From contig CAVVJT010000007.1 of assembly GCA_963748625.1 (NCBI GenBank), positions 256,001 through 320,000 on the forward strand: a DNA stretch of 64,000 nt, written 5' to 3'. Source of the DNA: an uncultured Chloroflexia bacterium. Its GTDB lineage: Bacteria; Chloroflexota; Limnocylindria; Limnocylindrales; CSP1-4. Below are positions 22,632 through 25,096 of the stretch, one piece after another (position 1 is the stretch's first letter; each line of letters starts with the position of its first letter). The translations under genes were made by a program, and so were the position numbers. The notes below the pieces were generated by a model that saw only the letters and a list, made by a program, of their open reading frames with translations, was not told the DNA's origin and did not search any database.

Positions 22632-23501
22632 TCAGTCGGCCTCGAGGCCGGCGATGAACCGGCGGAGCACCTTCGCGAGCCGCGGCCCAGCAGCGGCACC
22701 CGCCTCGAGGACCTCGTCGTGGGCGAGCGGCACGCCCGAGTACCCGGCGCCGGCGTTCGTCACGAGGGACACGCCCGCCACCTCGAGTCCCACCCAGCGT
22801 GCGGCGATCGCCTCGAGCACGGTGGACATGCCCACGGCATCCGCGCCGAGGGTGCGCGCCATCCGGACCTCGGCCGGGGTCTCGTAGTTCGGCCCGAGGA
22901 AGCCCATGTACACGCCCTCGTCGAGCTCGACGCCCTCGGCATCGCCGGCCGCGCGCAGCGCCGCCCGGTGGGCGGGGGTCCACACGTCCGTGAGGTCAAT
23001 GAACCGCTCGCCGAGCTCGTCGGCGTTCGGGCCCATGAGCGGCGAGATCCCGGTGAAGTTGATGTGGTCGCTGATGACCATGAGCGTCCCCGGCCCATAC
23101 GCGGGGTTCGCGCCGCCAGCCGCGTTGGTCAGGATCACGAGGCTCGCGCCCAGCTGCTTGAACAGCAGGACCGGCTGCACCACCAGGCCCGGGGCGTTCC
23201 CCTCGTACACGTGGAAGCGGCCCTGGAGGACCACCACCGGCACGCCGGCCAGGTGGCCGAGCAGCAGACGGCCCGCGTGGCCCGGCGCCGTGGCCACCGG
23301 CCAGCCGGGCAGCGCCTCGAAGGGGATGGCGACCGGATCATCGATCTCGTCGGCGAGGCTGCCGAGGCCGGAGCCGAGCACGATGCCCACGCGCGGCACG
23401 AGGTCCGTGCGGGCTCGCACAGCGGCCACGAGCTCGGCCAGACGGGCGGGCTGCTCGGACGGGGGGATGGGACGGGAGCGATCGACGGCGGTATCGGTCA
23501 T
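22632..23501 (-). CDS. punA: Purine-nucleoside phosphorylase (trimeric family)
   Basis: IVLGSGLG, GHAG, GRFHVYEG, TNAAGG, GPNYETPAE, VGMST, VTN. Confidence 0.93.
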   Translation of the reverse strand: MTDTAVDRSRPIPPSEQPARLAELVAAVRARTDLVPRVGIVLGSGLGSLADEIDDPVAIPFEALPGWPVATAPGHAGRLLLGHLAGVPVVVLQGRFHVYEGNAPGLVVQPVLLFKQLGASLVILTNAAGGANPAYGPGTLMVISDHINFTGISPLMGPNADELGERFIDLTDVWTPAHRAALRAAGDAEGVELDEGVYMGFLGPNYETPAEVRMARTLGADAVGMSTVLEAIAARWVGLEVAGVSLVTNAGAGYSGVPLAHDEVLEAGAAAGPRLAKVLRRFIAGLEAD

Positions 23502-23593
23502 GGTGGCGAGGATAGGCGAGCCGGGACCGGTTGCGGAGGGGCTGCGCGCACGGGGCGCCGCACAGCGGGCAGGTGGCGCCGCACGGCGGGCAC

Positions 23594-23878
23594 GGGGCCT
23601 TAAACTTCGACGCCCGCCAGGAGTACTGACACCGGGATGCCAGTCGCGTCCTGCCGGGCGCCCAGCCGGCGAGCCCTTTCGGGCCAGCCCGCGCTGGTGA
23701 ACGAAGCGCTCGAAGCTGCCGGGGCACCGGACATGAAGCAAGCTCCCTGTCCCCGGCCTTGATGTGATCGCAGCCGTGGTGCCTGGTGCCGGGCGGTTGA
23801 GGTGATCTCAGCCCGGCCGTCCCGGTTCGGTCTTGAGGCGATCGCCTCCGACCCTGGACTCCGTCGGCCCCTTCGGGC
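23594..23878 (-). ncRNA. Candidate structured non-coding RNA (~285 nt), family not recognised
   Basis: Terminal pairing GGGGCC/GGCCCC and GACG/CGTC; at least five internal helices; GAAA and G(CUUG)C tetraloops; G.U wobbles on the minus strand; own sigma70 promoter. Confidence 0.6.
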
Positions 23879-23885
23879 AGAACGA

Positions 23886-23914
23886 ACGATAGGGCGGACG
23901 GCGGCCTGCTCCAA
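23886..23914 (-). promoter_or_regulatory. Sigma70-type promoter for the candidate ncRNA
   Basis: TTGGAG (23914-23909), 17 nt, TATCGT (23891-23886). Confidence 0.55.
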
Positions 23915-23919
23915 CGAGG

Positions 23920-23994
23920 TTGTCCACGAACTGCACCCCTGGCAGTGGCGATCCATCCACGTGGTTGCCCGCCGTGTGGACAGCCTGTGGACAG
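23920..23994. promoter_or_regulatory. Cluster of DnaA-box-like sequences
   Basis: TTGTCCACG (23920-23928) and two TGTGGACAG (23975-23983, 23986-23994), each one mismatch from TTGTCCACA. Confidence 0.45.
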
Positions 23995-24019
23995 ACGCGG
24001 GCGCCTGTCCGGCGCGCGC

Positions 24020-25096
24020 CTACCCGCCCAGGGCGAACATCTCCACCTTCGGCAGCCGGTCAGTCGCCGCGCTGCGCAACTCGGAGTAGCGGTCCGTGCG
24101 GGTGGCCCAGACAGCGGTCACAAGCGCCGCCAGCTCGTCGTCGGTGGCACCCGCCCGCAGCGGGGCCTTGAGATCGGTCCCGCCGGTCGCGAACAGGCAC
24201 GTGTAGAGGCTGCCCTCCGCTGACAGCCGGGCCCGGGTGCAGTCTCCGCAGAACGGCTGCGACACGGACGCGATGACGCCAACCTCGCCGCGCCCATCAC
24301 GGTAGGCGAACCGGTCGGCAACCTCGCCGCGATAGGACGCGGCGACTGGCTCCAAGGGCATCTCCGCGTCGATCGCGGCCAGGATCTCGTCCATGGGCAC
24401 CACGTCATCGAGGCGCCAGCCGTTGGAGTGGCCCACGTCCATGTACTCGATGAAGCGCAGGGTCACGCCCTCCTCGCGGGCCCAGCGGGCCAGGGGCAGA
24501 ATCGCGTCCTCGTTGAGGTGCCGCCGGATCACCGTGTTGACCTTGACCGGCGCAAGGCCGGCAGACTGAGCCGCGGCGATGCCGTCGAGCACCCGTGCCA
24601 CCGGGAAGTCCACGCCGTTCATCCGTCCGGCCACCTCGTCGTCGAGCGAGTCGAGGCTCACCGTGATGCGCTGCAGACCCGCCTCCGCCAGCGGACCCGC
24701 CAGCTGGCGAAGCGCGGAGCCGTTCGTGGTCAGGGTCAGGTCCACCGGCTCCCCGTCGGTGGTCCGCAGGCCGGCCAGGGACCCGATCAGCACGGGCAGG
24801 TCGCGCCGGACGAGTGGCTCCCCGCCCGTGATCCGCAGCTTGCGCACCCCGAGGCCCGTGAAGACCCCCGCAAGTCGCGTGATCTCCTCGAACGTCAGCA
24901 CCGCCTCGCGCGGCAGGAAGGCGAAGTCCCGTCCGAAGAGCTCGGCCGGCATGCAGTACGGGCACCGGAAGTTGCACCGGTCGGTGACTGAGATCCGCAG
25001 GTCGCGAAGTGCCCGGCCATACCTGTCGGGCAGGCCGGGACGCCCATCGAACGCGGCGTCGGTGGCCTGGGCATCGGGGCGCGGCTGCAGGTGCAC
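24020..25096 (-). CDS. moaA: GTP 3',8-cyclase MoaA (radical SAM)
   Basis: LRISVTDRCNFRCPYC, ITGGEP, TTNG, PFCGDCTRARL...CLF, C-terminal GG. Confidence 0.96.
   Translation of the reverse strand: MHLQPRPDAQATDAAFDGRPGLPDRYGRALRDLRISVTDRCNFRCPYCMPAELFGRDFAFLPREAVLTFEEITRLAGVFTGLGVRKLRITGGEPLVRRDLPVLIGSLAGLRTTDGEPVDLTLTTNGSALRQLAGPLAEAGLQRITVSLDSLDDEVAGRMNGVDFPVARVLDGIAAAQSAGLAPVKVNTVIRRHLNEDAILPLARWAREEGVTLRFIEYMDVGHSNGWRLDDVVPMDEILAAIDAEMPLEPVAASYRGEVADRFAYRDGRGEVGVIASVSQPFCGDCTRARLSAEGSLYTCLFATGGTDLKAPLRAGATDDELAALVTAVWATRTDRYSELRSAATDRLPKVEMFALGG

Follow-up and report, generated by a model that had tools for sequence, protein, structure and literature searches.

A two-domain structured RNA encoded between moaA and a purine nucleoside phosphorylase gene in one family of Chloroflexota

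Results

A folded RNA is encoded in the gap between moaA and the phosphorylase gene

We analysed a 64,000-nucleotide (nt) stretch from an uncultured Chloroflexia bacterium of the order Limnocylindrales (GenBank assembly GCA_963748625.1, contig CAVVJT010000007.1, positions 256,001 to 320,000), which we call the window and number from its first letter. A 520-nt gap on its minus strand (23501–24019) lies between a MoaA gene (Radical_SAM and Mob_synth_C domains) and a purine nucleoside phosphorylase gene (PNP_UDP_1 domain), both encoded on the same strand. This gap holds a real gene for a folded non-coding RNA of about 280 nt. A preliminary description, made from the sequence alone, had placed a non-coding RNA gene between moaA and the phosphorylase gene, and its fold, conservation, covariation and single-copy occurrence bear this out. 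The RNA is a new family of a familiar general kind, found in one Chloroflexota family only, and it is a distinct two-domain variant of a local set of small RNAs (sRNAs). Its predicted start is G23878, the conserved sequence stops at ...GUCGAAGUUUAA (23600), and the length is about 279 nt in the window and 171–349 nt among relatives.

The minus strand of the gene folded at −152.5 kcal/mol (z = −3.68), a value equalled by none of 200 shuffled sequences, whereas the plus strand gave a z of −0.62 that 51 of 200 shuffles equalled; the strand chosen in the preliminary description was thus the right one. Searches with Rfam 15, a check that the description had proposed, returned no match even at E ≤ 10 over positions 23400–24100, none at E ≤ 1 over the loci of eight relatives, and no family at the gathering score in the whole window. 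At that score the window also contains no recognisable tRNA or riboswitch, the region upstream of moaA included. A housekeeping RNA in disguise was ruled out; RNase P RNA, signal recognition particle RNA and transfer-messenger RNA were all found elsewhere in the genome, which is 98.3% complete. A literature search yielded no description of sRNAs in Limnocylindria and nothing on this RNA.

Full-length counterparts were found by BLAST in 22 of the 24 genomes of the genus, with 69–73% identity over about 300–350 nt where the match was in a single piece; the two genomes lacking one are 88% and 73% complete. The 22 sequences were aligned (alignment A1) and used to build a covariance model, R1. Separately, a 21-nt pattern taken from the best-conserved part of the RNA was searched in the genome collection and gave at least 119 matching stretches; among the matches listed, nearly all records were titled Chloroflexota, Limnocylindria or Limnocylindrales. 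R1 matched 78 of the 80 loci fetched with this pattern, and the remaining two, from Streptomyces, were chance matches of the pattern. When R1 was run on an even draw of the class, 33 of 151 genomes were positive, including the window's own. Leaving that one aside, the window's family was positive in 30 of its 44 sampled genomes, a second family in 2 of 50 (both weak) and three others in none of 56. These counts, which supply the collection of homologues that the preliminary description had called for, point to an RNA restricted to one GTDB family, from soil and freshwater. Each R1-positive genome carries one copy. In the window's own genome the RNA body is likewise single-copy, and only the promoter and the first 15 or so nucleotides recur elsewhere; a dispersed repeat, the possibility that the description had wished to see excluded, was ruled out on this ground.

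Covariation was strong. RNAalifold placed 68 pairs on the genus alignment, 16 of them with compensatory changes. We then assembled a covariation alignment of 96 rows, 77 of which came from the 78 model-matching loci fetched by the pattern. Among its 86 distinct sequences, 95.7% of the cells were paired, 45 of the 68 pairs had changed on both sides, and the covariation score was 0.260. In slid controls, only 33–52.5% of the cells were paired, 16–21 pairs had changed on both sides, and the score did not exceed 0.054; none of 500 shuffles attained the observed values. This is the signal that the preliminary description had expected of a genuine structured RNA.

We also considered whether the locus carries no RNA gene at all, being instead a protein gene or a DNA-level element made of DnaA boxes and GATC sites. 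An open reading frame (ORF) for 118 amino acids (23956–23600) overlaps the RNA, and 79 of 86 relatives have a sense frame that stays open through 95% or more of the RNA; the locus also contains DnaA-box-like sites and three GATC sites. Open frames are, however, expected at 71% G+C, the lengths of the RNAs differ by non-multiples of three, and the distance between two conserved anchors falls into all three classes modulo 3 (0, 2 and 1 in 34, 33 and 18 RNAs). The anchor distances, and the absence of any Pfam family in the ORF, speak against a protein-coding gene. Compensatory changes and strand asymmetry are signals at the RNA level, and the element is present in RNA libraries (described below). 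An explanation without an RNA gene is therefore extremely improbable.

Two domains, each closed by its own helix

The consensus fold divides the RNA into two adjacent domains (Table 1). A helix that we call P1 closes domain 1; it joins the 5′ end, GCCCGAAG (23878–23871), to the mid-RNA segment CUUCGGGC (23715–23708). In the window the 3′ strand reads CUUCGAGC, with one C·A mismatch, and relatives show CG-to-UA and AU-to-GC exchanges. Directly 3′ of P1, GCUUCG (23707–23702) pairs with CGAAGU (23609–23604) in helix P2, which closes domain 2. The same layout is seen in A1, in which the 5′ end pairs with columns 174–180 and the 3′ end with columns 181–185. Because no nucleotide separates P1 from P2 on the strand that runs through both, the two helices would stack on each other and bring the 5′ and 3′ ends of the RNA together, judging from the secondary structure.

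Domain 1 varies among relatives and is built of between one and five hairpins that each end in the loop GAUC(A/G)C(A/C)UCAA. In the window copy there are three of these, together with a fourth hairpin (23757–23718) capped by CUUG. Among the 78 relatives, the number of loops rises with length: one in all 28 RNAs of 171–200 nt, usually three at 255–265 nt, and up to five at 345–349 nt. The sole loop of all 28 short forms is of the GAUC(A/G)CAUCAA type, that of loop 3 in the window. In A1 the loops were better conserved than their own stems. The exact 11-mer occurs once in the genome on either strand, inside the RNA itself. A relaxed loop motif gave 23 genome matches; 18 of these lay outside these RNAs and had no module-like fold, most of them in long open frames. 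Module-like folding among the relaxed matches was confined to those in two sRNAs and to an intergenic hairpin outside the window (C3:315188, minus strand), GGC-G-GAUGACAUCAA-GCC, which carries the same loop module and has no promoter cassette of the kind described below. The longest forms (loci L025 from genome G021, L078, L033 and L066; 344–349 nt) are enlarged in domain 1, either by large insertions or by two additional loop hairpins, suggesting that the hairpin module was recently duplicated within the RNA.

Domain 2, of about 105 nt, is a three-way junction comprising a variable hairpin of GNRA type (P2a) and a long irregular hairpin, the upper 32 nt of which hardly vary. In this core, two internal loops lie beneath an 8-bp helix that contains G·U pairs and ends in a CCCG loop.

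Much of the fold drawn in the preliminary description recurs in relatives and covaries, namely the hairpin at 23859–23819, the helix at 23817–23788, the GCCC-GAAA-GGGC hairpin (23684–23673) and the CUGGCAUC/GGUGUCAG helix (23643–23626). It had overlooked the third loop hairpin, the recurrence of one loop motif and the division into two domains. Its closing helix, GGGGCC-GACG with CGTC...GGCCCC, was seen only in the fold of the window copy, and GGCCCC (23599–23594) is not conserved. The GCCGGGG/CCCCGGC helix with the CUUG cap does not belong to the conserved part either; it holds a 23-nt insertion present in the window copy alone among the 22 genus sequences. The argument that non-canonical pairs are G·U on this strand is borne out for the 23643–23626 helix, where G·U was kept in 22 of 22 genus sequences.

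Table 1. Features of the RNA gene, its flanks and the sister sRNA genes (window coordinates unless a contig is given)
Feature	Position	Strand	Basis or remark
Distal DnaA-box-like octamers (two), TGTCCACA	23986–23993, 23975–23982	−	read in the window
Proximal DnaA-box-like element, GTGGACAAC	23919–23927	−	4 nt upstream of −35; in 83 of 86 loci
−35 hexamer, TTGGAG	23909–23914	−	read in the window; TTGACC in many relatives
−10 hexamer, TATCGT	23886–23891	−	17 nt after −35, 7 nt before GCCCGAAG; TAnnnT in relatives
RNA gene	23600–23878	−	genus alignment, covariance models, covariation; RNA-library contigs 23643–23800 and 23674–23869
P1 5′ strand (clamp), GCCCGAAG	23871–23878	−	pairs with 23715–23708; covariation
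Loop 1, GAUCGCCUCAA	23833–23843	−	caps hairpin 23859–23819; alignment, motif search
Loop 2, GAUCACCUCAA	23797–23807	−	caps hairpin 23817–23788; alignment, motif search
Loop 3, GAUCACAUCAA	23759–23769	−	alignment, loop count
Hairpin GCCGGGG...CUUG...CCCCGGC with 23-nt insertion	23718–23757	−	gap in 21 of 22 A1 rows
P1 3′ strand, CUUCGAGC	23708–23715	−	read in the window; consensus fold
P2 5′ strand, GCUUCG	23702–23707	−	position of the U-rich tail in paralogues without domain 2
P2a hairpin, GCCC-GAAA-GGGC	23673–23684	−	both sides changed in 6 of 6 pairs
Near-invariant core of domain 2 (32 nt), GGACGCGACUGGCAUCCCGGUGUCAGUACUCC	23620–23651	−	alignment, consensus fold, covariation
P2 3′ strand, CGAAGU, then UUAA	23604–23609	−	consensus fold, covariation
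TATCCT, 7 nt, phosphorylase ATG (23501)	23499–23514	−	read in the window; resembles a leaderless promoter
Sister sRNA genes (about 131, 195 and 85 nt)	C3:102388, C4:514260, C10:1155692	+	loci L002/L152, L003/L166

A conserved promoter with DnaA-box-like elements

The preliminary description had proposed the promoter TTGGAG-17-TATCGT. A consensus promoter and terminator scanner run over 23400–24100 reported nothing above its thresholds, and the two hexamers score only 7 of 12. The promoter is nevertheless supported, because the whole arrangement is conserved in relatives: across 86 distinct loci, the upstream consensus reads (C/G)GTGGA(T/C/A)AA(C/G), 4 nt, TTGACC or TTGGAG, 17 nt, TAnnnT, 7 nt, GCCCGAAGGGGCC. 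Judged by this layout, the promoter is σ70-like, with a DnaA-box-like element set against the −35 hexamer. The element matches the DnaA box, whose consensus we take to be TTATCCACA, at 8 of 9 positions. Beyond the proximal box, 60 of 86 loci have more of them farther upstream, at a mean of 1.34 per 158 nt; none was found in 84 control stretches, which are coding and differ in composition.

In the window's own genome, the same proximal element stands before three other sRNA genes and a gene resembling rsmG. At the latter site (C7:1232755, minus strand) the same arrangement of box and promoter, with a perfect TTATCCACA, lies about 220 nt upstream of the rsmG/gidB-like gene, which adjoins the usual gene set of an origin region. 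This perfect box is one of only two in the genome, and dnaA lies 70 kb away at C7:1162392.

Sister sRNA genes share the promoter and the clamp

The promoter and the 5′ strand of the clamp form a cassette that occurs in four copies in the genome, including that of the RNA itself. The three others share the promoter and the first 12 transcribed bases, and each starts a smaller RNA. Two of these begin with GCCCGAAGGGGC and the third (C10:1155692) with GUCCGAAGGGGC. In all three, a clamp of 12–14 bp joins the 5′ end to ...CCUUCGG(G/A)(C/U), after which comes a U-rich tail. The 85-nt paralogue has one hairpin with the loop GAUGACAUCAA. Across the class, 30 of the 35 genomes searched from the window's family carried one to four cassette copies, and none of 85 genomes of other families carried any; the reversed control gave none.

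The same loop occurs in sRNAs without domain 2, both in the window's own genome (C10:1155775) and elsewhere (L171, L173 and G062). The weak R1 matches outside the group are also sRNAs with domain 1 only; they have the same loops and a U-rich tail, and they lie away from moaA and the phosphorylase gene. In genus g6, the syntenic sRNA itself lacks domain 2. The RNA of the window is the sole member of the set located between moaA and the phosphorylase gene, and here the clamp is followed not by a U-rich tail but by GCUUCGUU, which pairs with CGAAGU some 95 nt downstream and thereby encloses domain 2. A model of domain 2 alone matched 29 of 44 family genomes and none of 106 others, once per genome and at the sites of the R1 matches; in this search domain 2 was never met away from the locus. 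Domain 2 looks like a read-through extension that has been captured into a helix, since the 5′ strand of P2 sits where the paralogues have their U-rich tail.

Proposed function of the RNA

We read the RNA, tentatively and at somewhat less than even chances, as a stand-alone, stable, structured non-coding RNA that would act in trans by binding a presumed protein partner, which it would titrate or scaffold. This reading is suggested because the loops are reiterated in variable number, the sister genes share the promoter type, and the second module is invariant. The reiterated loops would serve as repeated docking sites for one factor, and domain 2 may provide another, different module for binding. 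Through their common promoter, the RNA and its paralogues would be under one regulator, possibly DnaA.

Several points weigh against this proposal. No RNA-binding protein is known to recognise this loop, and repeated loops would suit a base-pairing sRNA equally well. The invariance of the 21-nt stretch, which lies inside domain 2, is built in for 77 of the 96 alignment rows, and the alignment was fitted to the model; in the 22 BLAST-derived genus rows, which are free of the pattern bias, the core was still invariant except at three positions, two of which form a covarying pair. The start of the RNA is a prediction and its end is the limit of conservation, and the window has no recognisable terminator. 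Within 700-nt flanks, 67 of 78 loci have a phosphorylase gene downstream in the same orientation, and 52 of 78 have moaA upstream. The short forms of one group have a conserved hairpin, GCGGGCC...GGAGGCCCGC, immediately after the RNA, with GGAGG half-buried in it 5 nt before AUG or GUG; judging from this layout, the RNA and the phosphorylase gene are probably transcribed together there.

Evidence of expression comes from RNA libraries of two studies. One contig of 158 nt covers 23643–23800 with 100% identity, and another of 195 nt covers 23674–23869 with 11 differences; both span the boundary between domains 1 and 2. We regard them as weak support, since an assembled contig says nothing about strand or expression level and may stem from carried-over DNA. 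The flanking genes were represented by one weak 62-nt piece (24942–25003). Three of the four library runs contained next to none of the words of the query, and absent cover is no sign of silence.

Linkage to the phosphorylase gene and a possible role as its leader

The linkage to the phosphorylase gene, the lack of a terminator in the window and the GGAGG hairpin also favour a different explanation, in which the RNA, or at least domain 2, is a cis-acting leader that senses a metabolite or binds a protein and sets read-through or translation of the phosphorylase gene. The start of this gene usually lies 40–130 nt past the RNA, the hairpin of many short forms leaves no space for a separate promoter, and domain 2 keeps to this locus. 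Against a leader, the genus of the window has an unconserved spacer with TATCCT or TATGCT 6–7 nt before the ATG and no GGAGG. Many other relatives share such a spacer, with TATCCT, TATGCT or TAGACT 6–9 nt before the start codon, "many" being a count by eye. This looks like a promoter for a leaderless mRNA, by which the phosphorylase gene would form a separate transcription unit in the genus. Start signals of the phosphorylase gene vary among relatives (for example L024, L057, L036 and L039) between the leaderless-looking type and the GGAGG hairpin.

A canonical terminator (a hairpin and a U-run) follows the RNA in some relatives (L065, L105 and L063). At least seven loci keep the RNA with no phosphorylase gene within 700 nt, some of them with a convergent gene instead; conversely, the syntenic sRNA of g6 lacks domain 2, and the phosphorylase gene of one g5 genome has no RNA. 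A pairing of the 3′ strand of domain 2 with the downstream hairpin that would oppose sequestration was seen in one subgroup only. A single gene family is associated with the RNA, and promoter and clamp are common to unlinked sRNA genes; neither is typical of riboswitches. A switch of riboswitch type between domain 2 and the downstream hairpin has little in its favour; the competing pairing is not conserved throughout the group with the GGAGG hairpin, and the genus of the window lacks that hairpin. Taken together, these observations make a leader unlikely, although worth keeping in view. Promoter layout, terminators in some relatives, loci without the phosphorylase gene and the library contigs indicate that the RNA has its own transcription unit. 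It is not tied to the phosphorylase gene, on which it may have an effect in cis in some lineages.

In the g5 genome mentioned above (L187, G053:C10), the phosphorylase gene directly follows a gene resembling that of cytidine deaminase, in what looks like a nucleoside-salvage operon.

Loops as possible seeds for base pairing

The loops might instead be seeds of a base-pairing sRNA. Those with CCUC would copy the anti-Shine–Dalgarno tail of the 16S rRNA and occlude extended sites of the form GAGGUGAUC. Multi-loop sRNAs with identical seeds exist in other bacteria, the loops are the best-conserved single-stranded parts of the RNA, and loop 2 is identical over 9 nt (GAUCACCUC) to the 3′ tail of this genome's 16S rRNA, GGAUCACCUCCUUUCU. 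Mimicry of the tail is weakened, however, because the loop common to all members, GAUCACAUCAA, breaks the CCUC core, and this is the only type in the 28 one-loop forms; as a core function, mimicry is a long shot. The confinement of the exact 11-mer to the RNA itself leaves no perfectly complementary target in the genome, the relaxed motif matches outside these RNAs lack the hairpin fold and mostly lie in long open frames, and the near-invariant 32-nt core of domain 2 would be superfluous for seed pairing. We consider a base-pairing role unlikely, although, like the leader, worth keeping in view.

A bolder and quite improbable reading would join these elements into a replication-linked RNA regulon. 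DnaA, acting through the box beside the −35 hexamer, would drive the modular clamped sRNAs; the reiterated loops of the present member, as copies of the 16S tail (GAUCACCUC), would titrate a reader of that tail or extended Shine–Dalgarno sites, and domain 2 would recruit a second partner. In that case translation and nucleoside salvage would respond to the state of the replication initiator, in a class of bacteria that is hardly in culture.

Soils and lakes hold Limnocylindria in abundance, yet few have been cultured. The locus gives a well-defined new RNA family, with a covariation-backed fold, a hairpin number that depends on the genus and an invariant second domain, linked to a promoter type with DnaA-box-like sites that recurs at the sister sRNA genes and at rsmG. 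Should the boxes indeed bind DnaA, nature would here have put a family of regulatory RNAs under the control of the replication initiator; should they not, the RNA would remain well suited to entry into Rfam and to work on its structure and partner.

Comparison with known RNAs

In design, the proposed protein-binding RNA resembles CsrB/CsrC and RsmX/Y/Z, which likewise comprise several paralogous sRNA genes, hairpins that vary in number and share one loop, and a shared upstream promoter element. The loops differ; theirs is the A(N)GGA motif to which CsrA/RsmA binds, and the one here, GAUCACAUCAA, contains no GGA. Those RNAs have nothing equivalent to domain 2, and the upstream element is DnaA-box-like here and a GacA/UvrY site there. 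The likeness is one of design only, with no homology.

The raiA-motif, OLE, ROOL and GOLLD RNAs share with it conservation, several helices, restriction to lineages and a function not evident from context. All of them are Rfam families, none of which matched, and the present RNA is smaller, modular and confined to one Chloroflexota family. Y RNA and YrlA are structured sRNAs with a clamping helix as well. Here, the partner of the 5′ end is a mid-RNA segment instead of the 3′ end, and there was no Rfam match. A role as Y RNA is argued against because the 98.3%-complete genome contains no gene for a TROVE-domain protein (Ro60, PF05731); the control search found this domain in Deinococcus radiodurans and Bacteroides thetaiotaomicron.

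The preliminary description had suggested an RNA polymerase binder like 6S RNA or Ms1. The RNA resembles 6S RNA (RF00013) and Ms1 in its size (200–300 nt), its own promoter, its stand-alone nature and its probable abundance, as the RNA-library contigs suggest. A whole-genome search with the Rfam 6S model gave no match at E ≤ 1, which leaves that role unfilled by a recognisable gene; the same model, however, detects 6S RNA in only 5 of 14 control genomes, and its silence across this one means little. Within the region the model had no match at E ≤ 10. The fold comprises two adjacent domains rather than a rod closed at its ends with a central bubble, and the 5′ and 3′ ends are not paired together. 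Its length varies between 171 and 349 nt by gain and loss of hairpins, unlike that of a promoter mimic. Ms1 was compared through the scan with all Rfam models, which was blank. The suggestion thus found little to sustain it, and a 6S/Ms1-like role is improbable. The sister sRNA of about 195 nt, whose ends are clamped (C4:514260), would be a better candidate. This sister gene precedes a NUDIX-like ORF.

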